Below, one piece after another: positions 872-33,367 of a stretch of 64,000 bases of DNA; position 1 is the first letter of the stretch; every line of letters begins with the position of its first letter. Origin of the DNA: a virus (lineage: Duplodnaviria; Caudoviricetes); IMG/VR virus record IMGVR_UViG_3300030330_003269, positions 32,766-96,765 of that record; one strand, given 5' to 3'. A model generated the notes under the pieces. The model saw only the letters and a list, made by a program, of their open reading frames with translations, was not told the DNA's origin and ran no database searches. Position numbers and translations under genes: made by a program.

Positions 872-1531
872 TTATTCCTCCTTTTCTTCAATGGTTTCAA
901 TTTTGTTGTTCATCAAAAGATAATTAATTCTTTCAGTCATTAAAGTAATTCTAGTCATTAATTCTAGCACTTCTTCATTGGCCTTCTTGGTATCTGCTAC
1001 GGCGGGTGGGGTTATAAACCAACCTGCTGATGTAAGAGACATAACATCTTTTTTGGACAATGTTTCAAGAGGGCCAGACTTAATTACCTTTGGAACCTTT
1101 GGAACGAATCTTTTGAATTCTAACCCATGTTTTTCTGCTAATACCTGTTGTTGAAGCATTTCTAATTGCATATACATAGCAGAATGTTTAGGACAATATG
1201 TTCCCATTAATGGTCTTCCCTTAACTACTTTATCTAAAGGCATAGGGGGTCTTAAATAATCTCCCGATTCCCAAATATGATGAAAACCACAAACCACACA
1301 ACGGTCTTTCAAATTAAATTTCTTACCGTATTTAATTCCCAAAAACTTCTTAGGCTCTGCCTTTAGAACAGTAGTGAGTTCCTTCAATTGTTTTTTCGGT
1401 GTAGCAGTTAAGAATTTATATTCCATTACTGCTCCACTTGCTCTTGCCTGTTGAATGGGATTCAAGGCAGGATTAAACTGCGATGGTGCGTTTTGTCCAA
1501 TTAAGTTCGGTTGTTGAAACATAGTAATCAA
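872..1531 (-). CDS. zinc-finger-containing hypothetical protein
   Basis: CVVC...YCPKH metal ligands; overlaps the stop of the GTPase gene. Confidence 0.7.
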   Translation of the reverse strand: MITMFQQPNLIGQNAPSQFNPALNPIQQARASGAVMEYKFLTATPKKQLKELTTVLKAEPKKFLGIKYGKKFNLKDRCVVCGFHHIWESGDYLRPPMPLDKVVKGRPLMGTYCPKHSAMYMQLEMLQQQVLAEKHGLEFKRFVPKVPKVIKSGPLETLSKKDVMSLTSAGWFITPPAVADTKKANEEVLELMTRITLMTERINYLLMNNKIETIEEKEE

Positions 1532-2196
1532 TAGTCCTTTATCATTGTTGTGATTCCTAAATATACCATTTCGGGGTCTGATTTGGCTGATACAATATAT
1601 TTGAAACAGGGTATTCCTTTATCATTTAATTTTCTCATACCATATTTAAATGGTTCAAATATCTCATGTTTATCTATGGATTTTCCTTCTTCTAATGGAT
1701 ATTTTTTTCCCCATATATCATATTTATTTGCCCAAATTCCTACGGCCATTGGATAATCCGAATCTCTTTTCTTTTTTCCGTTTGACCATGTGTTTGAAAT
1801 AATTGTATCTACTAAAAATTTCCATGCTAATTGGTGGTCTAAGTTTGCTTCACTATCTAAATGTCGGTGGTCAATCATAAAAATAAGATATTTAACTCTT
1901 CTTTCTCTCATATCTTTTTCCCATTCTTTCCAGTAAATTGCTTCTCCACCAATGTCTGCACTTTTAATGGTATGTGAATTTCCATCAATTTTAATATTCT
2001 TTCTTGAGGCTCTGTGTTTTCCTACAGTTCTTTGGTTTATTTGAGGAACTTCTCCCCGTGTTCTTAATTGATGACTAAGTGTTGTTTTACCAACCATTGT
2101 TGCCCCATAAACTCCAAAATTAATTGCGTGAACCTTTTTGTAGAATCCTATGATTGCTTCACCGACTAAAATAGCAAAGCCTGTCATTAGCGACAT
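1528..2196 (-). CDS. small Ras/Arf-like GTPase
   Basis: G1 GATMVGKTT, G2 Thr (QRTVG), G3 DIGG, G4 NKYD, G5 SAK; hydrophobic N-terminal helix. Confidence 0.9.
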   Translation of the reverse strand: MSLMTGFAILVGEAIIGFYKKVHAINFGVYGATMVGKTTLSHQLRTRGEVPQINQRTVGKHRASRKNIKIDGNSHTIKSADIGGEAIYWKEWEKDMRERRVKYLIFMIDHRHLDSEANLDHQLAWKFLVDTIISNTWSNGKKKRDSDYPMAVGIWANKYDIWGKKYPLEEGKSIDKHEIFEPFKYGMRKLNDKGIPCFKYIVSAKSDPEMVYLGITTMIKDY

Positions 2197-4652: not shown

Positions 4653-6002
4653 TCAAAGAAGGTTGGTAATCTTTCCTTGACCCTTGAAGTAAGAACAGCC
4701 CATTTCACCAATTGTTCGGTAAAGAGCCTTGTTTCCAAGACGGCCAACACCGAATGGGTTTCCATTGGAAATACCATCCTCAAAGTATTGAGTTGGCTTC
4801 ATAACCGACAACCAAAGGTGGTCAGTATCAAGAAGCAACATATCGCTGATACAGGAAGTATTTGCACCCGTTGAAGGCATAGCGGCAACAGGAATCAAAG
4901 GAATGTCGTAATAGGTAGAAACACGGAAACCGACTTCTGCACCCTTAACACCACGAACACCGTTCACGGTTGGAACGATTTCCTTTCTGTCCATGAATCG
5001 CTCTTGAGCCTGAAGCAAGTCAGAAAGCGTTTGAAGCGTATCATATCCAGTAAGAATGACCTTTGGCGAACCACCAGCAATTCTCAAATCACGAAGCATG
5101 GAGTTAAGCACAGTCAAGGTAAATTGACGAGCATTTCCACTTGCATAGCCAGAGCCGAAAGAAACAGCAGAATCAAGGAAAGAAGCCGAATCACGGTTTG
5201 TTCCGTAAAGATGGCTAATTTCATCAGTAGTTGCCGAAGAAATCAAAACGGTTCCAGAAGCCATAGCATCCAATTCTGCCTTAGAAGAAATAATCTTGTA
5301 AAGAGAAGTGTAGTTGCGCTCAATCAGAGAAATTTGGTTGGTAGCATTCAAATCGTAGTTTTCAAGAGGCATAACAAGCATAGCATTCTGCACTTCAGAA
5401 TGATGCTTACCCATGTCTTCTCTCAATTGAGCACGAATATCACCGATGCCATCATCAATAGCCGCCATTTCCATAGCAAGTTCCGAGAACTCAAATTGAT
5501 GAGCAATAATCTTGGGACTCGTAAAGAGTTGAGTGTAAGTTGGAGCAATTGAAGCCAAACCGTCTTGATGGGTGTCTAAAGCCGCATTTTCGGGAACACC
5601 ACCGATAAGGTCAGGACGCAAAGCCGCCGCACCAATGTTAGCCGCACTACCAGCGATATTAACGCCAGTCAAATCAAGGAAATTACCGCTACCACCAGCA
5701 GGTCGCTCCTTTAGGACTCTCCAACCACTTGAAGTGTAAGGTCGCTTTGAAATAACCGAAAGTGCGTTGCATTCACGGTTCAACATAGACCAGACCTTTT
5801 GGCCGTAAATTTTGTTATAAAGAGCAGTAGTGTCGGAAATAGCACTAAAGCCATTTGCGGCGGTTCCTGCAACATCATGTCCAGCATGAATACCAGCAAC
5901 ACCGCCCGCTTGCTTAAGCAATTGGTTGTTAAGGCCAGTATGACCAGTCAATCCGTAAGTTTGTCTTTCTAAGTCTGCAATTGTGTTAATATATCCTGTC
6001 AT
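4653..6002 (-). CDS. major capsid protein (HK97 fold)
   Basis: 449 aa after the protease-scaffold gene; typical C-terminal P-domain pattern (VSTYYDIPLIP, DMLLLDTD, KGQGKITNL); AGGTGA RBS. Confidence 0.9.
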   Translation of the reverse strand: MTGYINTIADLERQTYGLTGHTGLNNQLLKQAGGVAGIHAGHDVAGTAANGFSAISDTTALYNKIYGQKVWSMLNRECNALSVISKRPYTSSGWRVLKERPAGGSGNFLDLTGVNIAGSAANIGAAALRPDLIGGVPENAALDTHQDGLASIAPTYTQLFTSPKIIAHQFEFSELAMEMAAIDDGIGDIRAQLREDMGKHHSEVQNAMLVMPLENYDLNATNQISLIERNYTSLYKIISSKAELDAMASGTVLISSATTDEISHLYGTNRDSASFLDSAVSFGSGYASGNARQFTLTVLNSMLRDLRIAGGSPKVILTGYDTLQTLSDLLQAQERFMDRKEIVPTVNGVRGVKGAEVGFRVSTYYDIPLIPVAAMPSTGANTSCISDMLLLDTDHLWLSVMKPTQYFEDGISNGNPFGVGRLGNKALYRTIGEMGCSYFKGQGKITNLL

Positions 6003-6013
6003 GGTAAATCACC

Positions 6014-7243
6014 TCAGTTAAATCCTCCAGCCATTTTATGAATCTCCGACCAATCCATCTCGGCCAATTCATCCATAGTTGGGAGTTTGATTTGGGCTTC
6101 TTCTTGAGCCTTAATAATTTGGTTCTTCTCAGCCGTCAAGGACTTGCGAAGAGAAGCAAATTCATTCTTAAGAGAAGCAATTTCGGAAGCCGCATCATAT
6201 TGCGACTTTGCGAGGATGTTCTCTCTTTGGGAAGTTTCAGCCTTAAAGCGAGCCTCAAACTGCTTTTGAAGGTTGTCATAAGCCAACTTCTCCAATTGTT
6301 CTTGACGGAAAGCATCGTAAGCCTTCTCAATGTTAGCAACGCTCAAATCAAGCGTTTCTAACTCATCGTTGTTAAATGCCTTAACAACAGGAAGGTCGCT
6401 GGCTCTTGGCTTGCCGTTGTCAATAACGATTCTGTCGGCAGGTTCACCGATTTCAACGCCAGCACCATCAAGGGTAGAAAGAAGGGCTTTTGCCTCTTCA
6501 TCACGATACATCTTTTCATCCTCATCCATGAGTTTTTCGGACATCATCTTTTCATCTTCGTCCTCCATTTTCTCATCCATGAGTTTTTCAGACATCATCT
6601 TTTCATCCTCATCTTCCATCTTTTCGTCCATTTCTTCCTTACGCAGAGTATTAACCTCTGCCATAAGTGCGTCCAGTTCTTCTAAAGCCTTTTCAATTTT
6701 GCTCATGTTTTTCACCTTTTTTTCTTGTTTAAGAATATCAAACTTTGCTTCGGGGTTAATTCCTTTTTCACAGATAGTAACTTCATGTAATTCAAGTTTG
6801 CTAATTTCGTTAAATTCACCTAATTCTGGATTAGTCTTCTTTGTTTTTTGTAAAGCCTGTCCTCCAATACTAAATGACCTAAGCGAACCTTTTCTAATTC
6901 CTCTATTAATTTCCTTTGCTTTTTCAATATCATCTCTTAATTTGATTACCACAAAGAATCCAACATCATCAACTTCAGTTTTCCACAACTTTCCGTTTTT
7001 GTCTCGGTATGATTTTACTACTTCTCCAACTTGAACATTTGAATGATTAGTCATTACATTTCTAAACTTGGGGTTTTCCATGTATTTTTCAACTGCTTCC
7101 TCCAATGCTTTGAGTGTGATTAAATCATTTTGCTTATCAACGATTTCAATGCTTGCATATCCTCCAATCATTAAATCGTCGCTTTTTAGAATCCTGAAAT
7201 CTTGAGTGTTGTTCATCATCACCGAGGAAGTCATTCTTCTCAA
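6014..7243 (-). CDS. prohead protease fused to scaffold domain
   Basis: HK97-type protease motifs IGGYAS..VDKQND, catalytic His (TNHS), SFSIGG, LHEVTICEKGINP; acidic coiled-coil C-terminal half. Confidence 0.9.
   Translation of the reverse strand: MRRMTSSVMMNNTQDFRILKSDDLMIGGYASIEIVDKQNDLITLKALEEAVEKYMENPKFRNVMTNHSNVQVGEVVKSYRDKNGKLWKTEVDDVGFFVVIKLRDDIEKAKEINRGIRKGSLRSFSIGGQALQKTKKTNPELGEFNEISKLELHEVTICEKGINPEAKFDILKQEKKVKNMSKIEKALEELDALMAEVNTLRKEEMDEKMEDEDEKMMSEKLMDEKMEDEDEKMMSEKLMDEDEKMYRDEEAKALLSTLDGAGVEIGEPADRIVIDNGKPRASDLPVVKAFNNDELETLDLSVANIEKAYDAFRQEQLEKLAYDNLQKQFEARFKAETSQRENILAKSQYDAASEIASLKNEFASLRKSLTAEKNQIIKAQEEAQIKLPTMDELAEMDWSEIHKMAGGFN
6508..6632 (-). repeat. 51-bp coding tandem repeat in scaffold (MDEKMEDEDEKMMSEKL x2 plus partial)
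   Basis: Visible in both DNA and protein. Confidence 0.85.
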
Positions 7244-7277
7244 CCCTTCTTATTCAATTGCAGTATATAAAGAACAC

Positions 7278-9800
7278 CTATTCGTTGGTAGGAATGGGCA
7301 ACTTGTTATACCTATCTTCGTAAATGTTCCACTTTCCTGTGTCCGAGTCGGTGTCTGCTGGCTTTTGTTTATATCCAGTCCAAGCAAGCCACATTCTTTC
7401 TCCTTTAACAGGAATGACTCTAATATGTAATTTAGTTTCAAACTTATTCCCTTCTAAGAAATATTCATGATAGCCATCTTTTTGAACACCAAGTTTGATT
7501 TTACCAGAATCAATGACTTTTCCTCTTTCAACATTCTTTGAAACTTCTGCTGGATATTTACCAGCCGCTCCGAATAAATCAAAGAGTTCTTCTTCATTCT
7601 CTAAATCAATAGTCCAATGCATTACTTCATCTTCAACTTTAATGCTCAAGTGAACTCTATTATCCTCTCTAGCATAGATTTTAAAATTACCTTCTTGGTA
7701 TTCTTTTGGTGTTTTGTATTGTTTTATGATTTCTTCATTTTGTAAAATTACATCGGGGTCTGCGTGTAGTTTTCCATTAACCATAGAAAGGTGTTCTCTT
7801 TCTTGCGCCCAACTGCCTAACTTAGATTGCTTAGAATCCAAAATATCTTCATAAGTTTCCTTCATGTTTCTCATTAAGAAATCATGAACATCTTTAACAC
7901 TTCTATCTCCTTTTTCTTGCAAATAATTAACAATAGAAACAGTAAGTTTTCCTTGCTTTGTTTTCATAATTTCTTCTGCTTGAGTTTTCCAAAGGTCAAT
8001 GTCTTGTAAAGCATTCTTTGACATTAGATTATTTTCTTCAAAACCATAGATAGTAAATCCATTCATGTCATACTTGATAATAGCATTGGCTTCTCCATGA
8101 ATATGGTCTGTAATTTTAACTCCTTTCGTAAAGGCTTCAACATCATAGTTTAGAGATTTTTTAGTATCTTGAGATAATAGTTCTAAAGTGACTAGTTTAT
8201 CTGGGTGTTCAACCTCTGGAACTTCAATTACTTTAGCAGAGAATAAACTATACCCTTCACCTTTCTTTTTAACTTCATCCACTTTTACTCTAATAATATC
8301 CCCAACATCAACAGAAATCTTAGTGTTCAATGCTTTTCCTACATTTAAATACATTCTTCCTTCAATTTCTTGAAGGTTCTTCATTTCTTCATTAATTGGG
8401 CCGATACCTACTGTATAGGAATATAATTTAGATTTTGTTTTAGATTTGTCTAAAACGATAACATCTAAATCAACAAATTTCTTTAACTTAATCCACTTCG
8501 GATTCTTTTTTGTTCCTACATAATAAGTTGAAGTAGCGTCTTTAATAACTACTCCCTCAGATGTTGGCATTTGCATAATCTGTTCAGCGTATTCTTTTAA
8601 GTCCTTTAGACTGTCTGCCTGACGAGTATCTTTCTTTGAAGGAAAATCAATTGCTTCGGAAGATTTAGAAGAATAGTTATTGAATAGAGTTGTCATTCTC
8701 ACTTCAAGTTCTTCTTCCATCATATTTTGAGATTCATGTCTCATAATATCAAAAACATGACACCTTAGTTTAGCATCTTTATATTTATTTTTAAATACAT
8801 GAGCGATAGTATCTGCACGATGAAGAGGTTCATCACCATCAAACAAGATTAGTTCCGCATCAAGAATACAATCACCATATTCCTTTTTCTTAAGTTCTTC
8901 AACCTGTTCTTTACATTTATCAGTAATATCCTTTTCATTATAAGAAAAGACCTTAATGTTATTATCAATCTTATGTAATTGAACTCTCATGCCATCATAT
9001 TTTTCTTGAATATACCAATTGCCACTAAATCCTTTCAATTCATTAATGTCATCAATTTCAAAAATTCTATACATGGGTTTATTTGGAATAATAAAATCAC
9101 TTTGTGCTTTTTTCTCGGAAGACTTCTTTTCTTCCTTTTTCATATCAATATCTTTAAGTTCTTCAAATTCTTTTTCTGTGTTTTGAGAAAGCATAATTAA
9201 TTCTAACATATCCATAGCGGCCTTTACTTTTGATTCAACCTTCTTTGAGTCTTTTCCATCCCCGTAATGCTCCGTAATGTAGAGGGCCACATCGTCCACT
9301 TCTAGGTCAAGTCCTTGAAGACCCGCCGTAATTCGGTCAGGTTCCATGTCTTTAATGCTCAAAACCTCTTCGGAAAGCGTTTTATTGTCGTCTCTTATAG
9401 CATAATGAACAAATTTAACCATTGATTCAGGATTAGTCATTAATTCTTCCAAGACTCCATCACCAAAGGAAGCGGCGAAGGGGTCGGCCACCAGCGACGA
9501 AGTATAGCGAATTAATTTTATTTTCTTGTAAAGTTCCTTTGCTTGAGGAGATTTAGGGTCTTTTGCTTCCTTAGCATCTAAGTCCTTCTCGTCAATAAAG
9601 TTTTTTAATTCTTTTCCAGCAGCATCTAATTCTTCATATGATTCCCTAATCATATCAACTGCTTTACGCCAACGACCCCCGTATTCATCGGGGTCTTCAT
9701 TAGCAGATAAATAAGCAACTCTGGTCTTTTCAAAAAGACGAAGCAGTTCAACAGAAGGCTGCTTATCTTTCTCAATTGACCCAAGTTTCATTGATACCAC
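7278..9800 (-). CDS. ATP-dependent DNA ligase-domain protein in head module, with C-terminal LigD phosphoesterase-like region
   Basis: Motif I EKYDG, ILDAE, VFDI, EGVVIK, WIKLK and OB domain; C-terminal 150 aa resemble a degenerate LigD PE domain. Confidence 0.85.
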   Translation of the reverse strand: MVSMKLGSIEKDKQPSVELLRLFEKTRVAYLSANEDPDEYGGRWRKAVDMIRESYEELDAAGKELKNFIDEKDLDAKEAKDPKSPQAKELYKKIKLIRYTSSLVADPFAASFGDGVLEELMTNPESMVKFVHYAIRDDNKTLSEEVLSIKDMEPDRITAGLQGLDLEVDDVALYITEHYGDGKDSKKVESKVKAAMDMLELIMLSQNTEKEFEELKDIDMKKEEKKSSEKKAQSDFIIPNKPMYRIFEIDDINELKGFSGNWYIQEKYDGMRVQLHKIDNNIKVFSYNEKDITDKCKEQVEELKKKEYGDCILDAELILFDGDEPLHRADTIAHVFKNKYKDAKLRCHVFDIMRHESQNMMEEELEVRMTTLFNNYSSKSSEAIDFPSKKDTRQADSLKDLKEYAEQIMQMPTSEGVVIKDATSTYYVGTKKNPKWIKLKKFVDLDVIVLDKSKTKSKLYSYTVGIGPINEEMKNLQEIEGRMYLNVGKALNTKISVDVGDIIRVKVDEVKKKGEGYSLFSAKVIEVPEVEHPDKLVTLELLSQDTKKSLNYDVEAFTKGVKITDHIHGEANAIIKYDMNGFTIYGFEENNLMSKNALQDIDLWKTQAEEIMKTKQGKLTVSIVNYLQEKGDRSVKDVHDFLMRNMKETYEDILDSKQSKLGSWAQEREHLSMVNGKLHADPDVILQNEEIIKQYKTPKEYQEGNFKIYAREDNRVHLSIKVEDEVMHWTIDLENEEELFDLFGAAGKYPAEVSKNVERGKVIDSGKIKLGVQKDGYHEYFLEGNKFETKLHIRVIPVKGERMWLAWTGYKQKPADTDSDTGKWNIYEDRYNKLPIPTNE

Positions 9801-9804
9801 CTAT

Positions 9805-10332
9805 TTAGCGGTATCTATTTGGTGGTCTTAAGACCGTTCCACCTTCTCCTTGAAATGGAGAAGTAGAAATAAATTGTTCTAACATACCGATTAATTGACT
9901 CATTCTGGTAGTAAATCTGTTTTGGTCTACTTTACCAGCACGAAGGTCAGCAAGAAGTTTATCCATTTCTTTATTTGTTGCTTCTAAATCAGCCTCAAGG
10001 CTTTCCATTCTTCTTTTGTTAGCCTCTGCATCAAGATAGGGATTGCTTTCTTCTTTCTTGATTAGATGCTTAATAATAATCATAGCCTTTTTGAATTCTG
10101 TCATCTGACCTCCGAGATTATATCCATCTGTGGGTCTATTATCAGGAATCAGATTCTTAGGTGTTTCAGCGGAAGGTCGCTTAATTTTAACGACTTCACT
10201 ATCAGCCTCCATTGGACTTCGGTTATTATCCATTAAAGATTGATAAAGAAGTTCTTTTGCTTCTCTTGCTTTCTCAATCACCATAGATACAATTCTTTCT
10301 TCTCTAGTTACTCTTTGAGGCATATTAATCAC
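9805..10332 (-). CDS. hypothetical protein
   Basis: 175-aa ORF in head operon. Confidence 0.7.
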   Translation of the reverse strand: MINMPQRVTREERIVSMVIEKAREAKELLYQSLMDNNRSPMEADSEVVKIKRPSAETPKNLIPDNRPTDGYNLGGQMTEFKKAMIIIKHLIKKEESNPYLDAEANKRRMESLEADLEATNKEMDKLLADLRAGKVDQNRFTTRMSQLIGMLEQFISTSPFQGEGGTVLRPPNRYR

Positions 10333-10574
10333 TCCATTCCTTTGACCATCTTATGAATGTCAGACCACTCCATGTCTCCGACATTCTTCCCTAATACGGA
10401 ATCTCCACCAATAACAGATTCCATAACAGGTGTTGGACTATTTGATACAACAAAACCTGCTTTCATAAGCAGACTGTCTTTAGCATAAATTGTTTTTTCT
10501 AATGCTTCAACCTTTGCAGTTAAAGCCTTGATAATTTCAAGCATATCTTCATTAATTGAATTTTCTTCACTCAT
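10329..10574 (-). CDS. small scaffold-like protein
   Basis: N-terminal coiled coil; C-terminus MEWSDIHKM matches scaffold end MDWSEIHKM. Confidence 0.7.
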   Translation of the reverse strand: MSEENSINEDMLEIIKALTAKVEALEKTIYAKDSLLMKAGFVVSNSPTPVMESVIGGDSVLGKNVGDMEWSDIHKMVKGME

Positions 10575-10936
10575 TTCTTTTCCTCCTTTTTTCCAGTAGG
10601 ATAAACCAAATCTCTCAATTGACGGTAGAGTAATTCATACTCCTTACGAAGTTTCGTAGCGGTGGCGACTATATCAATATTCCTTTCATCCATTGACTTC
10701 ATTTTCTTATTTAACTTCTTATCTGATTTAATTAATTCTAATTCTCTAAGAGTCTCAATAAGTTCACCTAATTTAGTGAAGTCTTGACCAAAAAATTCTG
10801 TTGGTTCTGCCGCTTGAAGAGTTTTCTTCAATCTTTTTCTGCCTTTGGCATCTAAAGAATCAAGAAGTTCTTTTGGCTCTTGTTTCTCAGCCTTTAAGAT
10901 AAAGCCTTCTCCATCTCCATAGTAGTCCCATGTCAT
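10571..10936 (-). CDS. hypothetical protein
   Basis: 121 aa, ATGA-coupled; N-terminal FILKA. Confidence 0.7.
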   Translation of the reverse strand: MTWDYYGDGEGFILKAEKQEPKELLDSLDAKGRKRLKKTLQAAEPTEFFGQDFTKLGELIETLRELELIKSDKKLNKKMKSMDERNIDIVATATKLRKEYELLYRQLRDLVYPTGKKEEKK

Positions 10937-12948
10937 TCTTCATCACCTTCTGGTTGTCTTTTACTGGGTTTAAACTTAAATCTACCCGAACCTTCTCTTG
11001 CTCTTTGTTCTTCTTTGGTTTCAAAGGCTCTCTCTGGTCTTGGTTTTGGCTTTTCACTACCTCTATCTAATTGAGCAAACTCTTCTCCTGCTTCATTAAC
11101 AATTTCTTGTAATTCATTTCTTAAGGTGATATATTCATCTCTTAAATTAGTGAATTCTTCAACATCAGTAAAGCCTAATTCTTCATATCTATCATCAATG
11201 GAGAAGGCTTCTTCAATTTGAAGCCCATCTTTTAAAATTTCTTCGGTTGCTTCTTTGAGGCCCTTTTCATATCCATTAAAGTCTTTAAGTAATTTTTTGC
11301 TGAGTTTAGTTAATTTGTCTAGTTTATTATTTCCTTTAATAAGAATATTTATGGAACTCTTTCCTAATGGGATTAGTTCGCCCTCGCTATCAGTTAATCT
11401 TTTCATAAGACTTCCGTAATCTTGAACTAAGTCTTTAATTGACATTTCAGTAGTGGTTTCTCCATATCCTAATTGATTTAAATTTTTCATAACTTCATTA
11501 ACCTTGGCCTCAGCAGTTTGAATTTCATCATCAATATCTCCTAAAGTATCTTGCGCTACTTTATCTACAAACTCTGCATATTTTTCAACATCTATATCTC
11601 CAGAAAAACGCCCCTCTTCAATACCAATACCAAATGATAACTCAATAGTTTCTTTGAGTTGTCTTTTAAGTCTGCCTTGCATTATTTCTCTTCTAGGTCT
11701 TTGTAGGTTTTCTCTTTGGTTTTCGTCTGCAAGACCTTTTCTGTTTGTAAGCATAACTTTTATTGCTTCTTTGATGGTTTTAACTTTTCTTTTCATCAAA
11801 GCACCAGAATCTTCTTTCATATCACTTAAGTCTTCTATTCTATCTTCAAGGTTTTGTTGGACATCTCTAAATGAACGAATAAATTTTTTCATCTCATCAA
11901 TATTTTTCTTGGCTCTTTTGAATCCTAATTCTGTTTTTGGGTCTTTTCCTTTGCTATAACCCATAAGAGCATCCGAGACTTTTTTTTGTTGTTTGCGGTC
12001 AATAAAGCGAGCGGCATTTCTATTGAATTTAACTCTAAACATTTCATTTAATGCCTTTGATAAAGGAACGGGTTCCCCGCCCTCAACAGGATATTCTCTA
12101 ATATATGATAATAATTCATCTTGTAGTGCAGGAATATCAATAATTTTATTTTTATCTTCAGAATATACATATTCTCCTTTGTCCTTTACCATAGGAACAA
12201 ATTGTTGTCTTAGAGTTTGCGTTAGTCTTTTTTCTCCTGTATCAGTAGTTCCTTCATACAGTTTAAAGTTTCTAAGAACATCCGATAAAGACTTAACTAA
12301 AGCCTTCTTATCGGTTTCTAATTCACCAACAAGAGAAATTAGTTCATTACCTACTTTAATTCCTCTTTCTTTGTTAGGCCCAACAAATCTTTCAAACTCT
12401 CTCGTTCTAATTTGTTCTCCGCTTTTCATATCTAATTTGTCGGTAATTTTCTTCAATGCCGCAGAAAATCCTTGAATTTTTTCAATTTTCTTTTTGGCTT
12501 CTTTATTTTTCTTAAAGGTTTCAGCAAGGGATAATTTTTTCTGTTTTTCTTTTGCTGCGTCCTTTTCGCCTCGTAATTCTGCTTGGCGTTTATCTTCCTG
12601 TTCGGCTAATTCAGAAACACTACTACCTCTATCTCTTCCAGAAACGGCTTCTTCAACATCTTCCAGTTGTGCGCCTTCATCGGTTCGCTGTTCTTCTGTT
12701 CCTCTTGCTCTAACATCTTTTTCGGCTTCAAGTCTTTCTTTTCTTTGTTCTTCGGTTTCTTCTTCTTCGGCCTTTTGAATATATCTTCTATATTGAACAA
12801 TGTTTGAAGAGTTCATATTTTTAACAAGAGACATTTTAATCAAAGTAGCAGAAGAACCTTGATTCACTAACTCTTTTGTTTCTTCATCTAATTCAACGCG
12901 CTTTAGCAATCCTGCCAAAGACTTATCCTTAGATAAATCAAAAATCAT
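10933..12948 (-). CDS. large charged coiled-coil protein (putative internal head protein)
   Basis: 671 aa, E/K-rich and helical, between portal and protease. Confidence 0.7.
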   Translation of the reverse strand: MIFDLSKDKSLAGLLKRVELDEETKELVNQGSSATLIKMSLVKNMNSSNIVQYRRYIQKAEEEETEEQRKERLEAEKDVRARGTEEQRTDEGAQLEDVEEAVSGRDRGSSVSELAEQEDKRQAELRGEKDAAKEKQKKLSLAETFKKNKEAKKKIEKIQGFSAALKKITDKLDMKSGEQIRTREFERFVGPNKERGIKVGNELISLVGELETDKKALVKSLSDVLRNFKLYEGTTDTGEKRLTQTLRQQFVPMVKDKGEYVYSEDKNKIIDIPALQDELLSYIREYPVEGGEPVPLSKALNEMFRVKFNRNAARFIDRKQQKKVSDALMGYSKGKDPKTELGFKRAKKNIDEMKKFIRSFRDVQQNLEDRIEDLSDMKEDSGALMKRKVKTIKEAIKVMLTNRKGLADENQRENLQRPRREIMQGRLKRQLKETIELSFGIGIEEGRFSGDIDVEKYAEFVDKVAQDTLGDIDDEIQTAEAKVNEVMKNLNQLGYGETTTEMSIKDLVQDYGSLMKRLTDSEGELIPLGKSSINILIKGNNKLDKLTKLSKKLLKDFNGYEKGLKEATEEILKDGLQIEEAFSIDDRYEELGFTDVEEFTNLRDEYITLRNELQEIVNEAGEEFAQLDRGSEKPKPRPERAFETKEEQRAREGSGRFKFKPSKRQPEGDEE

Positions 12949-12957
12949 TTATTCACC

Positions 12958-13182
12958 TCAAAAAGGAATATTTTCTTTTCTGTTCTTTTGTTTTGGAGGC
13001 AAGGTGATAACATCAGGAACATCTGCTGAATGCAGTTTCTTTTTAACGCTAGTATCTTGGGGAATACCTACACTAAAATCCTTTGTTGGTTTTAATTTTG
13101 TGTTGGCATTTGCGTTAATCGCCCTTACTTGAGCAAGTTCCTTTGCTAACCTTACTTCCTTTTGTTTCATATCTTCTGTCAT
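12958..13182 (-). CDS. hypothetical protein
   Basis: 74 aa, TAATG-coupled to portal. Confidence 0.65.
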   Translation of the reverse strand: MTEDMKQKEVRLAKELAQVRAINANANTKLKPTKDFSVGIPQDTSVKKKLHSADVPDVITLPPKQKNRKENIPF

Positions 13183-14819
13183 TAACCCACTCTCCTTTCT
13201 GTTCTTCGGTCTGTATTTTGGTTTCCCGCATCAACGGGTAATCCTGTAAGTCTCTTATCTGGCCCTACGCTCATTGAGGCTTTATTTCTTGTGGCTGGCG
13301 GGTTTTCCTGTGGCTTTCCTCCGCCTTGCATGGCCTGTTCCTGCATTTGTCCCAACTGCGAAGCATCAATGTTTGTTCCAGCATAAGGGTCAGTTTTTGC
13401 ATCACCTTCGCCTTCTTGCGGCTTGGGTTCTTGGGGTTCGGGCTTCTTGAAAGTAAATTGTCCATCCTCGTCCATATCAACCTCAAATCCTAAATTCTTC
13501 GTTGATGCTGCAATATTGACTTCAATTTCACGCTTACGAAGAACAGCAATTTCATCTTCTTCTTCACTTGGGGGTAATTTAAGTTTCCAATCAGTAATAC
13601 CAAATTGTTTTACAAGGAATGGGAAAACATAATTATTATACACAGTTTGCGCCTTTTGAACTGCTCTGTTCGTAACTAAAATCTGCATACCTTCATTGTT
13701 TAATCCGCCGCTTGTAGTATTATCAGCCATGAAGACTTTGCTTACACCATAAAAAGCAGAAATTCTATCTCTTAAATCATCTTTGACAGAAACATAGTCC
13801 ATTTCCTTTAGACTATCCATGAACTTAATCCATTCAACTCCACCCTTTCCTCCTTCTGCTTCAATTCCCATAACAGGAATAAAGTGTGGGTCTGCTTCCA
13901 TCTTTTCTTTAACAGACCGCCAAAAGGCTCGCATTGAATCCATATTTCTTGTTTGAACGGCTAAAAGACCTCTCGGCATACGGCTCTTTGTATAAGATGA
14001 ATTGACATAGTTTTCCATAGCAATAAGAGTCATCATAGAATTAAACAAAGTAATGACAGGCGATTGACCATAAAGACGAGAAGGACTATATTTACTAAAA
14101 TGCAATACCTCTCCCTTCAAAAAGTATTGGTCTGTTCCATTTGCTCTATTAACATAATGAACAGGATAAACAGCACCACCACAAGTCCCACAACGCTCAT
14201 GTGGTTCAGTAGTGATAAAATCTCTATGATTAACACAGGTGAATCCCTTAGTTCCTCTTTGACCTAATTCATCAGAATAAATAAACATAGTTACTGGGTC
14301 GCCACGATAAAGTTCTTTAATGCGATGCATTCTAATTTTTTGATTACCGTCAATAAAATATTCTTTAACAAGGACAATATAAGCATCATCCATAATATTC
14401 AAATCGTCTTCTAATTCTTGAAGAACATCAATAAATAACTGCTCTGACTTATTAACATATCCTTCAATAAATTTTTCAGCATATTCTAATTGTTTTGCAT
14501 CGGGAATATCTAATTCCAAATGACCACAACGAGCGCATTCTTGAACAGGTCTTTGATGTTCTTTACCGCAGTTCTTACATTTTGCTTCGTATGCCTTTTC
14601 CCAGACATATCCTCTTCGGAAAACTTCTTGCTTTAATTGAGTAATGCAAGTTCTCCCAATAACTGATTGATTAATGATGTTATACAACAAAGGGCCAGTC
14701 ATCATATGACGATTTTCTCTTTCTTGAATACCCATGTTATATACGGTTCTATCCGCAGGTTTGGGAGTTTGTCTCCTAAACAGGTTTGTAAAACTGAATC
14801 TTCTTTTTTCATCAGCCAT
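13182..14819 (-). CDS. portal protein with Zn-ribbon insertions
   Basis: Position; portal-like LHFSKYSPSRLYGQSP, PRGLL, ISAFYGVSKVFM; CKNC/CARC and CVNH/CGTC. Confidence 0.85.
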   Translation of the reverse strand: MADEKRRFSFTNLFRRQTPKPADRTVYNMGIQERENRHMMTGPLLYNIINQSVIGRTCITQLKQEVFRRGYVWEKAYEAKCKNCGKEHQRPVQECARCGHLELDIPDAKQLEYAEKFIEGYVNKSEQLFIDVLQELEDDLNIMDDAYIVLVKEYFIDGNQKIRMHRIKELYRGDPVTMFIYSDELGQRGTKGFTCVNHRDFITTEPHERCGTCGGAVYPVHYVNRANGTDQYFLKGEVLHFSKYSPSRLYGQSPVITLFNSMMTLIAMENYVNSSYTKSRMPRGLLAVQTRNMDSMRAFWRSVKEKMEADPHFIPVMGIEAEGGKGGVEWIKFMDSLKEMDYVSVKDDLRDRISAFYGVSKVFMADNTTSGGLNNEGMQILVTNRAVQKAQTVYNNYVFPFLVKQFGITDWKLKLPPSEEEDEIAVLRKREIEVNIAASTKNLGFEVDMDEDGQFTFKKPEPQEPKPQEGEGDAKTDPYAGTNIDASQLGQMQEQAMQGGGKPQENPPATRNKASMSVGPDKRLTGLPVDAGNQNTDRRTERRVG

Positions 14820-15712: not shown

Positions 15713-16069
15713 TCACTTCTTTTTAGATTTGTTTCCCCAATTCTTTGCGCCTACTTTACGACAACGGACTAAAGCACCCGAAGCATAAGCAGAAGGCCAT
15801 TTCTTATAACGACTACGAACTTTGTGATAACAAGCGTCTTTTTCTTTCTTTAATTCTTCAAACCAAAGGCCTTTACGAATTTCTGCCTTTCCTGTGGCTA
15901 GTTTTTTCTTGCCGCCCGCTTTTCTTGCTCTATTCATTTCTTTCGCCGCCTTCTTTGCCTTTTCTTTTGTTGAGAAACCACCATGTTTTTTACCATCAAA
16001 AAAGAAATGATATTCATTACCTGTTGAATAGACCTTCACTTCCTTCTCAATTTTCATTAACAATTCCAC
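15713..16069 (-). CDS. small basic protein with internal WFEELKK motif
   Basis: C-terminal KDACYHKVRSRYKKWPSAYASGALVRCRK domain. Confidence 0.7.
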   Translation of the reverse strand: MELLMKIEKEVKVYSTGNEYHFFFDGKKHGGFSTKEKAKKAAKEMNRARKAGGKKKLATGKAEIRKGLWFEELKKEKDACYHKVRSRYKKWPSAYASGALVRCRKVGAKNWGNKSKKK

Positions 16070-16347
16070 CTTCTTCTTGCGGCCTTTGCTTTCTCGCTGT
16101 AAGTTCCATCTGCTCTCTTAAATCCTCTTGACCTTGCACAAAAAGATTTACGCCTCTTTGCTGCTTTACCGCCAGGTTTTAATTTACTTGGTTTTTTAGT
16201 TACTGGGCGCTTTAAATTAGCACCAGTTTCTCTTTTGAACTTAGCACGACCTTTCGCACTTAGTCCACCTGTTCTTGCGTGAATTTTTTTGTTATATCCT
16301 TTAAAAGGTTTTTTCTTCTTTTTAAGAATTTCTTGCCATTCATTCAT
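16057..16347 (-). CDS. small basic protein with WxxILK leader
   Basis: MNEWQEILKK; GGLSAKGRAKF...RRKSFCARS...RRWNC. Confidence 0.8.
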   Translation of the reverse strand: MNEWQEILKKKKKPFKGYNKKIHARTGGLSAKGRAKFKRETGANLKRPVTKKPSKLKPGGKAAKRRKSFCARSRGFKRADGTYSEKAKAARRRWNC

Positions 16348-16351
16348 AATA

Positions 16352-16663
16352 TCACTCTCTAATTCTTTCATAAAACCCAGTATTTTTATTTCTTTTATGA
16401 TAACCTAATTTATTAATTTTTTGACCAATAGTTTCTTTATTCACCCTTGCTTTAGCGTGTTTTGTTGCGTAATTAGTTCTAGTCATATGTCCTCCCTCAA
16501 CCAAGAGAGAAGCATATTCTCTAACTACTTCTTCAGCAATTAGAGGAAGTTTGAATGTTTTTCTGTCCTTTGTAACATTTTCAACCGCTTGAGTAAATAC
16601 AGGGTGATTTATTTTTTTTGCTGCGCCACGGGTGGCTTTAAGAATATTTTTCCACTCAATCAT
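16352..16663 (-). CDS. WxxILK-leader basic protein
   Basis: MIEWKNILKA behind GGTGA; resembles the C-terminal domain of the GNAT gene. Confidence 0.75.
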   Translation of the reverse strand: MIEWKNILKATRGAAKKINHPVFTQAVENVTKDRKTFKLPLIAEEVVREYASLLVEGGHMTRTNYATKHAKARVNKETIGQKINKLGYHKRNKNTGFYERIRE

Positions 16664-17246
16664 ATTTATCACCTATCATATAGCCTAATTTTTTTCCTGC
16701 TTGAATATCACTTGGATAATGACTTCCCATTTGCATTCTTGATAAAGAAATTCTATCTGCCATTTCTTTGAGTTCTTTCTTTTTGTTTGGATATTTTTTC
16801 CCTAATACTTTTTCTAAACCATGAGCCAACATTGAGTGTCCACTTGGAAATGCAGGGGTATCGTCTGTTTTTGTTTTAGTTGTTTTAATTTTATCAGATA
16901 TTTCATGTGGTCTTGGTCTTTGATATTTCATTTTTAAAGAGATAGCATAATAATTAATATCTTTCATAAAATCTTCGTAATCTTTTCTATCAGCATCAAC
17001 TATTTTGAGCATTTCTATTTCAGGTTTTAAATCAGAATCTTTCATTTGTTTTGGTGTTAGTTGTTTTTTTCTCATTACTGCTAAAATTTTAGGAATCTCA
17101 GTTTCTTCTTTTGGATAACTCATTTTTGGAATATCTATTTTTATTTTTGGGCTTCTCTCTAAGATTTTACTTTTTTTTCTTGAAAGAGTTCCACCCCAAG
17201 TTCTTTTTTTAAGAACAGAAAACCAACTTAATATGGTTTTGTCCAT
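16656..17246 (-). CDS. PAP2-superfamily phosphatase / haloperoxidase-like protein
   Basis: KMKYQRPRP, FPSGH, SRMQMGSHYPSD signature motifs; SWFSVLKK leader. Confidence 0.88.
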   Translation of the reverse strand: MDKTILSWFSVLKKRTWGGTLSRKKSKILERSPKIKIDIPKMSYPKEETEIPKILAVMRKKQLTPKQMKDSDLKPEIEMLKIVDADRKDYEDFMKDINYYAISLKMKYQRPRPHEISDKIKTTKTKTDDTPAFPSGHSMLAHGLEKVLGKKYPNKKKELKEMADRISLSRMQMGSHYPSDIQAGKKLGYMIGDKYD

Positions 17247-20417: not shown

Positions 20418-21257
20418 TCACTCCTCTTTGCCCATAGTCCAATAAGTAGTTCTTAAAATAGGAGAGGTGCTAGACAGACCATAAAGACTGACATTACCTT
20501 TAACACCCTGCTTAGCCTTTGGATAATAACCATATTTTCTCATAAGTTTAGTATAAGGCATAAATGTCATATGATTATCTTTTATTCTTCTTAATTGTGC
20601 CTTTTCTGAATGATTTCCATATGCGATAATAAGTTCTCGGTATTCTTTTGCAATTCTTTTCATTAGGTCTTTATTTTCAATACCCTTTCCGTCTAAATCT
20701 TCCACAATTTTTCTTACTGCTGCTTTAATAAATTGAAAATTATATTTTTTTTTAAGAATAGAAAACCAACTGGCCTGTTTATGAATCATCCACTTTTGAA
20801 CTTGGTCTGCATAAGTTAATCCTTCTAAATCTTGTTGAGAATCTTCAGGAAGTTCACTAATATTCATATCACCGAACCCTCTATTTCTATATGTGTTAGC
20901 AATTTTATCATTCGCAATATTCACATATAAAGTATTAGAACCCTTTTCTGCAATAATCTTATCAACTAATATTCCCGAAAGACCCCGACCTCTAAACTCA
21001 TCTCTTACATGAATACCTGCGCCAAGCAACTTACCCTTGTGTTTTGAAAATCCAATCACACCAACTGGTTTATCTTCATAATAAGCAACAAACATTGTTG
21101 CAGGAGCAGTAGCCCAAGAAGAATCACGGGACATTGAACGATAGCGCATTCTTCTTTTTTGATAATCAAAATAGCCATCGTCTTGAAAAGCCTTTACTGC
21201 ATCATCCTCAGACATTTCTCTAAAGGAAATATCAGCAGCAGAAAACTTTGAAACCAT
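20418..21257 (-). CDS. GNAT acetyltransferase fused to a WxxILK-led domain
   Basis: IHVRDEFRGRGLS acetyl-CoA motif and YRNRGF; internal SWFSILKK. Confidence 0.85.
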   Translation of the reverse strand: MVSKFSAADISFREMSEDDAVKAFQDDGYFDYQKRRMRYRSMSRDSSWATAPATMFVAYYEDKPVGVIGFSKHKGKLLGAGIHVRDEFRGRGLSGILVDKIIAEKGSNTLYVNIANDKIANTYRNRGFGDMNISELPEDSQQDLEGLTYADQVQKWMIHKQASWFSILKKKYNFQFIKAAVRKIVEDLDGKGIENKDLMKRIAKEYRELIIAYGNHSEKAQLRRIKDNHMTFMPYTKLMRKYGYYPKAKQGVKGNVSLYGLSSTSPILRTTYWTMGKEE

Positions 21258-26142: not shown

Positions 26143-26472
26143 CTACACATTAAAAGGATTAAAGGGTTCTTTTTCTTCTTCTTCTTTTACAGGCTTATCC
26201 AAAAATTGACCGCCTGTGTATTTTGCTTCCTTTCTGGCTTTTTCTTCTCTTAGCCTTTTTTCTTCATTGAGTTTTTTAGTTTCTGCTGCTTTTTTATTAG
26301 CCTGTTGTCGTCTTTCAGGAGAAAGAGGTTTTCTTGGCTTATCAGCATATATTCTTCCAGGTTTTTTTGTTCTTAGAGCCTGTCTTTTTGTCGGGGATGC
26401 GCCATATTCTTTAAAATCAAAAGCATCACCTCTTCCTGCATATCCTCTTTTAATAATGTCCTGCCACTTCAT
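26143..26472 (-). CDS. cassette gene, MKWQDIIK leader, basic
   Basis: 109 aa between repeats. Confidence 0.8.
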   Translation of the reverse strand: MKWQDIIKRGYAGRGDAFDFKEYGASPTKRQALRTKKPGRIYADKPRKPLSPERRQQANKKAAETKKLNEEKRLREEKARKEAKYTGGQFLDKPVKEEEEKEPFNPFNV

Positions 26473-26744
26473 TGTAATCTTTCCTGTATTCTAAAATCTT
26501 CTTGTCTGCTTAAACTGTTCAATAATTCAGTCATATCAAAATCGGGGTTATCTAAATTCTCTTGAGTTAATTGATTAAGAGCATCATCAATTGTTTCTTC
26601 CAAAAGTTCTTTTTGTCTTTGGTATTCGGCCTCAATAAACTCTTCTTGCATCTCTCTAAAAATAGCAATAGAATTGCTAATATCAGGATATTTATTAAAA
26701 TCAATTTGATTTGGGTCTAGTTTCAAAATTTCTTCCCAACTCAT
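26469..26744 (-). CDS. cassette gene, MSWEEILK leader, acidic
   Basis: 91 aa; ends QERLQ encoded by the repeat. Confidence 0.8.
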   Translation of the reverse strand: MSWEEILKLDPNQIDFNKYPDISNSIAIFREMQEEFIEAEYQRQKELLEETIDDALNQLTQENLDNPDFDMTELLNSLSRQEDFRIQERLQ

Positions 26745-32728: not shown

Positions 32729-33367
32729 TCACTTCCTTAGATTGTCAAACCATTTTTCCATCTTGTATTCATCTTGGAAAGCGGAACTGAATCCACTTTC
32801 GTCAAATTTAACACGGGGAAGAGGTTCTTTTCTTTCATCTGCCTCTTCCATTTCTTGTGCCTTATCGTAATAAAATGAGGCAGTTAGACCAAGTAAATAT
32901 CCCATAAGGTTTGTAGCACTTGGTAAGGATAATACTTCAGCGAACTTTTCCATCATTTCATCAGAATTAATTCCTAATTGCTCGGATAATTTTTCAGCCA
33001 TTTCAGAAAGTTCTTCTTTGATGACATCTTCTGCTAAGTCTTTTATTTTAGAGAGAATATTATCTGGCACTTCAAAAGGATTATCTTCACCATCTAAATC
33101 AAGTTCATCATCTGTTTCTTCGGGATTTTGTTTGAAATCAAACTTTTTATAAGTTTCATTTACACCAAACAACATTCCACCAATAGTAGTAGAAATAATA
33201 GTATCTACATCATCAGCAGAAATACCTTCGTTTTCTAATTTAGGAAAAGCATCATTGATGTAATCATAGGCTGCCTTAAAAACACCTTTGTTTCTTGGCG
33301 ATAGTTTATTGAAAACTACCGTATAGTTTGATTTACCGCGTTCTAAGATGTTTCTAAAATCTACCAT
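32729..33367 (-). CDS. acidic hypothetical protein
   Basis: 212 aa; ends KWFDNLRK. Confidence 0.75.
   Translation of the reverse strand: MVDFRNILERGKSNYTVVFNKLSPRNKGVFKAAYDYINDAFPKLENEGISADDVDTIISTTIGGMLFGVNETYKKFDFKQNPEETDDELDLDGEDNPFEVPDNILSKIKDLAEDVIKEELSEMAEKLSEQLGINSDEMMEKFAEVLSLPSATNLMGYLLGLTASFYYDKAQEMEEADERKEPLPRVKFDESGFSSAFQDEYKMEKWFDNLRK

Follow-up and report, generated by a model that had tools for sequence, protein, structure and literature searches.

A tryptophan-anchored C-terminal peptide shared by the protease-scaffold and a small head protein of a magrovirus: a candidate procapsid docking helix

Introduction

In the herpesviruses (UL26/UL26.5) and phage lambda (C/Nu3), the head maturation protease enters the procapsid by way of the scaffold's coat-binding C-terminus. 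HK97 lacks a scaffold of its own, a part taken over by the delta domain of the major capsid protein (MCP); a short C-terminal capsid-targeting segment of its gp4 protease is reportedly sufficient for encapsidation. The subject here is a pair of protein ends encoded in a 64,000-nt stretch of viral DNA (positions 32,766 to 96,765 of IMG/VR record IMGVR_UViG_3300030330_003269; hereafter the window). A 409-residue protein combining an S78-family protease with a probable scaffold domain, and a separately encoded 81-residue protein, end in close copies of one peptide built around an invariant tryptophan.

Common C-termini on separate head proteins have a described precedent: the 80alpha scaffolding protein and the 72-residue dimeric protein CpmB have a C-terminal helix-and-hook in common, which occupies the same capsid-protein site (PMC5644958). 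According to a recent review (PMC12749128), the resolved scaffold ends of 80alpha, P22, and phi29 all contact an N-arm helix.

The window is the terminal 64 kb of a complete linear 96.8-kb virus record. The virus fits the description of a magrovirus, that is, a virus of marine Poseidoniales archaea (PMC5434244). The nearest matches to its MCP and protease are from the haloarchaeal tailed viruses HVTV-1 and HCTV-1, at 24–33% identity, and its close relatives are IMG/VR records of ~94–97 kb. Of the viruses that infect ocean archaea, magroviruses rank with the most abundant; none has been cultured. Magrovirus papers searched for the motif, for scaffolds, and for terminal signals mention neither the C-terminal peptide nor the N-terminal one considered below, and the shared tail is unpublished as far as that search reached.

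Two head proteins with one C-terminal peptide

The two genes and their terminal peptides are:

6014-7243, minus strand: S78 protease-scaffold fusion, 409 aa, directly upstream of the MCP gene
6017-6058, minus strand: protease-scaffold tail, MDWSEIHKM (codons 6032-6058) followed by AGGFN; AlphaFold2 (AF2) helix at residues 398–406, from W398
10329-10574, minus strand: small tail-bearing protein, 81 aa, a candidate scaffolding protein; open reading frame (ORF) with 4 nt in common with each neighbour
10332-10373, minus strand: small-protein tail, MEWSDIHKM (codons 10347-10373) followed by VKGME; AF2 helix at residues 70–80, from W70

The C-terminus of the larger protein is EMDWSEIHKMAGGFN (complete end LAEMDWSEIHKMAGGFN), and that of the smaller is DMEWSDIHKMVKGME (complete end VGDMEWSDIHKMVKGME). 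Both motifs are present in these two ORFs as the original prediction described them, although the ends quoted there stop two residues short: FN comes after AGG in the larger protein, and the smaller ends in ME. When the two proteins are compared by BLASTP, the alignment is limited to 16 residues of the tails, with 8 of 16 identical and 12 of 16 similar (E 2e-4, a value that holds for a single comparison). The proteins thus have the tail in common, and nothing else. Nor does the small protein correspond to the C-terminal part of the larger one read in frame: ~3 kb lies between their two genes.

A related motif begins many other proteins of this genome, as an N-terminal leader (W-tag) that is treated in its own section below. 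Among 102 genes from a crude gene call, W..[ILVM][ILVMH][KRQ] is found N-terminally in 20 and C-terminally in two, which are the two tails; there are three internal occurrences, against ~3.4 expected by chance as estimated from residue frequencies. For the stricter M-x-W-x-x-[IVM]-x-K, the coding strand of the whole 96.8-kb genome has 11 matches (the two tails and nine leaders), and a reversed control has none. In five genomes of a related clade (P0010-like, below), M-x-W-x-[DE]-[IVM]-H is found exactly twice per genome. The pairing of the tails is not chance. In AF2 models both motifs are terminal helices from the Trp onward, standing behind disordered or flexible segments.

The two carriers

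Upstream of its tail, the 409-residue protein can be divided into three parts:

6731-7171, minus strand: S78 prohead protease domain, residues 25–171; beta-rich in the AF2 model, predicted local distance difference test (pLDDT) ~80–86
6350-6592, minus strand: acidic, Met-rich linker, residues 218–298; predicted disordered, pLDDT <50
6098-6340, minus strand: helical hairpin, residues 302–382; AF2 helices 302–348 and 351–382, pLDDT 76–92

The protease assignment comes from Peptidase_S78 (PF04586; 39.2 bits with a cut-off of 21, E 9.8e-10, residues 24–180) and from the head maturation protease family PHROG 23555 (E 5.9e-17); there are 1256 homologues at E<=1e-3. In an alignment of 35 protease-scaffold sequences, 37–96% identical to the window's protein (alignment A3), many columns of the S78 domain are invariant, including H67 and S125, as is W398 of the tail. 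A helix is predicted at residues 182–223. The linker contains an exact 17-residue duplication in translation (MDEKMEDEDEKMMSEKL twice); alignment A3 extends to 553 columns for a reference of 409 residues, and its consensus in the linker region is largely undefined. Conserved columns return in the hairpin (A308, Y309, E318, F329, R332, E336, D350, A351, L365, and K378), which is probably a scaffold core or oligomerisation domain.

Upstream of its tail, the small protein has two parts:

10461-10571, minus strand: N-terminal helices, residues 2–38, coiled-coil-like, then conserved LLMKAGxV at the end
10374-10460, minus strand: linker, residues 39–67; start conserved (G40, V42, SPTP), rest variable and predicted disordered

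AF2 places helices at residues 2–30 and 32–38 (pLDDT 75–83 across residues 11–30), and a PDB profile search gives weak matches to the GCN4 coiled coil (E 0.06). A low-confidence stretch follows at 39–63, with pLDDT <50 at 51–62, and then the terminal helix at 70–80; this three-part layout resembles that of internal scaffolding proteins with a terminal coat-binding helix (P22 gp8, 80alpha gp46/CpmB, phi29 gp7), and conservation shows a matching three-part pattern. Among 35 orthologues, 16–94% identical (alignment A1), G40 and W70 are invariant, L36, K38, V42, and P47 nearly so, and M68 and I73 are present in at least 90% of sequences; beyond G40, V42, and P47, the linker differs freely among relatives in both sequence and length. 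No family was found for this protein in Pfam, PHROGs, or the PDB profile search. In the protein Atlas it matches only unnamed viral clusters, with a sub-threshold lead (score 0.75) to one cluster in which PF11418, the phi29 scaffold family, is annotated on 15% of members. As modeled, its build would fit a scaffold of the phi29 gp7 or CpmB kind: coiled coil, floppy linker, and peg.

Conservation and co-variation of the tails

The motif M[DE]W[SAN]xIHKM is kept on both proteins in 80 close relatives, wherever the contig has both. A wider sample was taken of the 150 best protease-family representatives (50%-identity clusters). Many full-length representatives end in [KEN]-M-[SDT]-W-x-[ED]-[IV]-[HNE]-x-[LMIA], 8–18 residues before the stop, a pattern common among those at 36–62% identity; the family-wide consensus is [ML]-[SD]-W-x-[DE]-[IV]-H-x-[LM]-[AV].

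Three further clades were sampled, via P0001/P0005, P0010, and P0012. Each has a protein of 70–112 aa between portal and protease, with a tail matching that of its own protease-scaffold; an orthologue of the small protein occupies this position in all clades sampled. Representative pairs are:

MSWEEVHQL / MSWEEIHEM (P0010-like)
LSWEEVNEL / MDWTQIDEL
LSWGDIHNL / MDWDDIHNM
GWRAAEDL / DWKQAEKQ

Lack of conservation in scaffold homologues would have counted against the original prediction, but the Trp tail is clearly retained on protease-scaffold homologues down to ~38% identity, and in every case a further small protein bears one too. Of the C-terminal W-I-K that was to be checked for conservation, the Trp is kept and [IV] is the family consensus at the Ile position; the Lys is confined to the window's clade. 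This last point bears on whether the tails might instead be processing or regulatory signals, serving as recognition sites for the prohead protease or as an autoinhibitory element. It is common for such proteases to trim both the scaffold and their own chain, with precedents in 80alpha and the herpesviruses; the HK97 protease cleaves after Lys, and the tails of this clade do have Lys at W+5 (counting from the Trp), as the leader does. The other clades' tails do not keep it, however, and a cleavage site would need neither the extreme C-terminus, nor an amphipathic helix, nor a limit to two proteins per genome. We consider a processing role highly improbable.

Protease-scaffold, small protein, and MCP occur together in 118 loci, with 62 distinct tail pairs; the survey leaves out the more distant tail-bearing proteases P0045, P0074, P0022, P0017, and P0019. 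The residues at W+3 and W+4 (protease-scaffold / small protein) are distributed as follows:

Window-like clade: I-H / I-H in 34 of 34 loci
P0010-like clade: V-H / I-H in 36 of 37 loci, the other being I-H / I-H
P0005-like sub-clade: [VL]-[NE] / [IV]-D in 5 of 5 loci
P0012-like clade: [ATV]-E / A-E in 41 of the 46 loci with enough upstream DNA

At least two lineages have lost His from both tails jointly, as would be expected if the tails were ligands of a single co-evolving site. In P0001-like loci the pattern is mixed, with His retained on the protease and any of H, R, N, S, or G at W+4 of the small protein.

A distant contig with an S78 protease ending KTPWNEIHREVKK also has a 60-aa ORF (L240:1155-1337) that starts (V)SWEELWIK, resembling tail and leader alike. 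This is a single case.

A proposed docking helix

The sequences show a motif that the two proteins share, that is deeply conserved and confined to just this pair, and that co-varies among clades. A terminal amphipathic helix on a flexible tether, found on only two carriers and kept constant as the sequence around it changes, is most plausibly a docking peg common to both. Both C-termini would be copies of one docking peptide, a short amphipathic helix beginning at the invariant Trp, on carriers that are otherwise unrelated: an S78 protease with a helical scaffold domain, and an 81-aa protein consisting of coiled coil, linker, and peg. Through the peptide both proteins would reach one site inside the assembling procapsid, on its inner face, with the HK97-fold MCP as the most likely partner; the protease would in this way be taken in alongside a small scaffolding protein that is probably the more abundant of the two. 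At maturation, protease-scaffold and small protein would be released or degraded. We put the probability that the tails are one amphipathic docking helix taking both head proteins to one procapsid site, most likely the MCP, at roughly 0.6.

The binding-peptide role, the capsid-protein partner, and the scaffold role of the small protein are all things we infer. The capsid protein is the presumed receptor because known cases point there; a comparison of MCP conservation by region did not single out any segment as the binding site. The suggestion that the 81-aa protein is an auxiliary scaffold fits its coiled-coil helix, its disordered and variable linker, its terminal helix, its syntenic position between portal and protease, and its 4-nt overlaps with neighbouring genes.

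Several points weigh against this interpretation. The small protein has no detectable homology to known scaffolding families in Pfam, PHROG, or PDB searches. No more than two or three independent events account for the co-varying changes, and co-variation is not strict, given that in P0001-like loci the small protein changes at W+4 with the protease His kept. Finally, the closest relative in culture, HVTV-1, encodes a 637-aa S78 protease that ends ...QKSWEQEDEP...QLYDL, and no tail pair could be recognised in this virus; not all related archaeal tailed viruses therefore have the device, and it could not be followed into haloviruses.

A peg of ~10 residues with an invariant Trp, on exactly two proteins per genome in the clades sampled, offers a testable handle on procapsid assembly in these viruses. 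It predicts which proteins are internal scaffolds and how the protease enters, and it names the residues to mutate.

The N-terminal leader and its relation to the tails

Some 21 ORFs of the minus strand, between 2209 and 35501, start with M(x)W-x-x-[IV]-[LI]-K; no such starts were found on the replication strand. Examples include:

26469-26744, minus strand: representative leader gene, starting MSWEEILK
16656-17231 and 16057-16347, minus strand: a leader-bearing PAP2 phosphatase (E 6e-12, no predicted membrane segment) and a leader-bearing DUF6321 protein (E 1e-14, 34 Lys/Arg in 96 residues)

At W+4 of the leader all six Leu codons are in use, and both Lys codons are used as well. An explanation at the RNA level is ruled out by this variety, and the six Leu codons indicate that selection acts on the peptide. 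Relatives have 7–16 strict copies per genome, compared to none in controls. The leader proteins are soluble, without predicted membrane segments, and many are very basic.

One further gene (20418-21257, minus strand) encodes a GNAT acetyltransferase domain at residues 1–131 with an internal tag, ...QASWFSILKKK..., at residue 163. The tag stands at a domain junction, with ~110 residues after it, and is not N-terminal.

The original prediction held that these leaders mimic the scaffold tail, loading some 20 cargo proteins through the same pocket of the capsid protein, on the ground that M-x-W-x-x-I-x-K is common to both. The resemblance is partial. In a comparison of 201 leaders and 129 tails, made at columns free of search-pattern constraint, the two agree at W-1 (S/T/N in leaders, S/D in tails) and at W+2 (D/E/N, in 74% of leaders, and D/E); the core common to both is S-W-x-[DE]-[IV], and each is a short helix with flexible sequence after it. 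Scaffold genes lie among leader genes, and a leader is often found on the gene immediately upstream of that for the small protein. Soluble, often very basic products would suit internal head proteins, and the internal tag of the GNAT fusion suggests that a free N-terminus may be dispensable.

The rest of the shared formula does not survive comparison: the Lys is specific to one clade's tails, and the leader Met is simply the initiator, with the Trp one, two, or three residues after it. Leaders and tails disagree at W+4 (L/I in leaders, H in tails) and at W+6 and W+7, where tails have L/M and A/V and leaders no clear preference; conversely, the leader's L/I at W+4 and K at W+5 are missing from tails family-wide.

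Clades also change one without the other. P0005-like genomes have changed tails (W-x-x-V-N-E-L and W-x-x-I-D-E-L) and 10–12 unchanged leaders. In the P0010-like clade the tails are nearly the same as here (MSWEEVHQL, MSWEEIHEM), but leaders of this kind are absent from five genomes of 86–107 kb; P0010-like magroviruses (L164-L237, G003-G007) have instead a different tag, F-[DE]-x-A-W-x-x-[LI]-K, in 4–8 coding-strand copies per genome, located at N-termini and also 6–50 residues from C-termini. The corresponding F-[DE]-x-A-W-x-x-L-K is only at noise level in the window's genome. Among P0012-like genomes, with A-E tails, the M-x-W-x-x-I-L-K start is missing from four of five (there is one match, in G014); [AG]-W-x-x-L-K tags are abundant in G013 and G016, and at background in G014, G015, and G017. 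G015, with A-E tails in a 108-kb, 100% complete genome, has tags at background level only.

Leader and tail therefore evolve separately, the tails as an old, constant device and the tags as a variable one. On these sequence comparisons, the leader is a separate tag that changes faster, probably with a receptor or constraints peculiar to it. The tags may have originated from the tail by inexact copying, but nothing in the comparison requires this or a common pocket. Mimicry of the tail in the same pocket is accordingly unlikely. The broader proposal, that a single site of the HK97-fold capsid protein reads W-tags and scaffold tails as versions of one peptide code, appears equally doubtful. If it were true, a changeable set of enzymes and basic proteins would be loaded in encapsulin fashion, with the scaffold tail as the ancestral ligand, and virus scaffolding and encapsulin cargo loading would be linked mechanistically. 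Any model of the W-tags must explain how they change or vanish under constant tails, and the reverse.

The head module and alternative docking partners

Apart from the protease-scaffold gene, the module and one gene downstream of it comprise:

13182-14819, minus strand: portal
Head module, minus strand: 671-aa protein, Lys/Glu-rich
Head module, minus strand: 121-, 81-, and 175-aa proteins
10571-10936, minus strand: gene for the 121-aa protein of that set, lying directly upstream of the small protein's, with a 4-nt overlap; starts MTWDYYGDGEGFILK
7278-9800, minus strand: 840-aa protein with an ATP-dependent DNA ligase domain
4653-6002, minus strand: MCP, HK97 fold, SU10/HVTV-1-like (Pfam SU10_MCP; PHROG major head protein, E 1e-20)
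1528-2196, minus strand: 222-aa protein downstream of the head genes

The synteny of this operon is kept among related loci: the order of the portal, protease-scaffold, and MCP genes is unchanged in every one examined. The MCP is 24% identical to those of haloarchaeal viruses. Successive genes of a four-gene run at 9805-12948 (minus strand) overlap by 4 nt, which suggests coupled translation. The leader of the 121-aa gene looks split by a 7-residue insertion, kept in the sub-clade; the gene at the same position in other clades starts MSWQSILK, MSWEDILK, or MSWKNILK.

The 840-aa protein, encoded between the small tail protein and the protease, has its ligase domain at residues 255–440 (E 7e-29). 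Other magrovirus lineages have a ligase-domain protein of 842–920 aa in this position, and two further clades have proteins of 1118 or 1849 aa with no Pfam family. The 840-aa protein may be a large packaged "polyvalent" protein. The 222-aa protein has a weak match to the MMR_HSR1 small-GTPase family (E 0.002), its 18.7 bits being under the curated cut-off of 21.9.

This arrangement raises the possibility that the tails dock not on the coat but on the portal, the 840-aa ligase-domain protein, or the scaffold core, in which case the tags might bind scaffold as T4 targeting sequences probably do. The stretch from portal to MCP contains the two tail genes, next to large conserved neighbours, scaffold–portal contacts are known in P22 and phi29, and the data do not single out the MCP. 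The large neighbour is swapped between clades, however (an 840–920-aa ligase protein in some, 1118 or 1849 aa in others), and the tails persist; and those scaffold terminal helices that have been located (80alpha, P22, phi29) touch the N-arm helix of the capsid protein (PMC12749128). Docking on a partner other than the coat thus seems improbable, and a site on the capsid protein remains the preferred interpretation.

Comparison with known systems

For the leader alone, the obvious parallels are the T4 capsid targeting sequence, a probable scaffold ligand, and the cargo-loading peptides of encapsulins: in each case a short terminal peptide is found on many unrelated proteins, here ~21 ORFs. The T4 and encapsulin peptides direct proteins into an HK97-fold shell, as the leader may; comparative data do not tie it to the scaffold tail.

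For the tails, the closest likeness is to 80alpha gp46 and SaPI1 CpmB, two otherwise different internal proteins with one short C-terminal helix motif. CpmB, which dimerises through an N-terminal domain and carries its peg at the C-terminus, has the build of the 81-aa protein (PMC5644958). It is, however, the protein of a phage parasite, in competition with the scaffold of the phage; here a single virus encodes both carriers, one as a fusion with the protease. The motifs also differ, an RIIK hook there and a Trp helix here, without sequence homology. HK97 gp4 is a protease of the same S78 family as the 409-aa protein.

The herpesvirus UL26/UL26.5 and lambda C/Nu3 pairs are nested in-frame genes with a long common region, unlike the genes described here, which are unrelated, ~3 kb apart, and have only ~10 residues in common. 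The tail pair is a new form of a known principle: unrelated proteins have an end in common through one short peptide, and not through nested genes. If the docking-peg interpretation is correct, the principle of a protease and a scaffold with one coat-binding end extends to the viruses of archaea.

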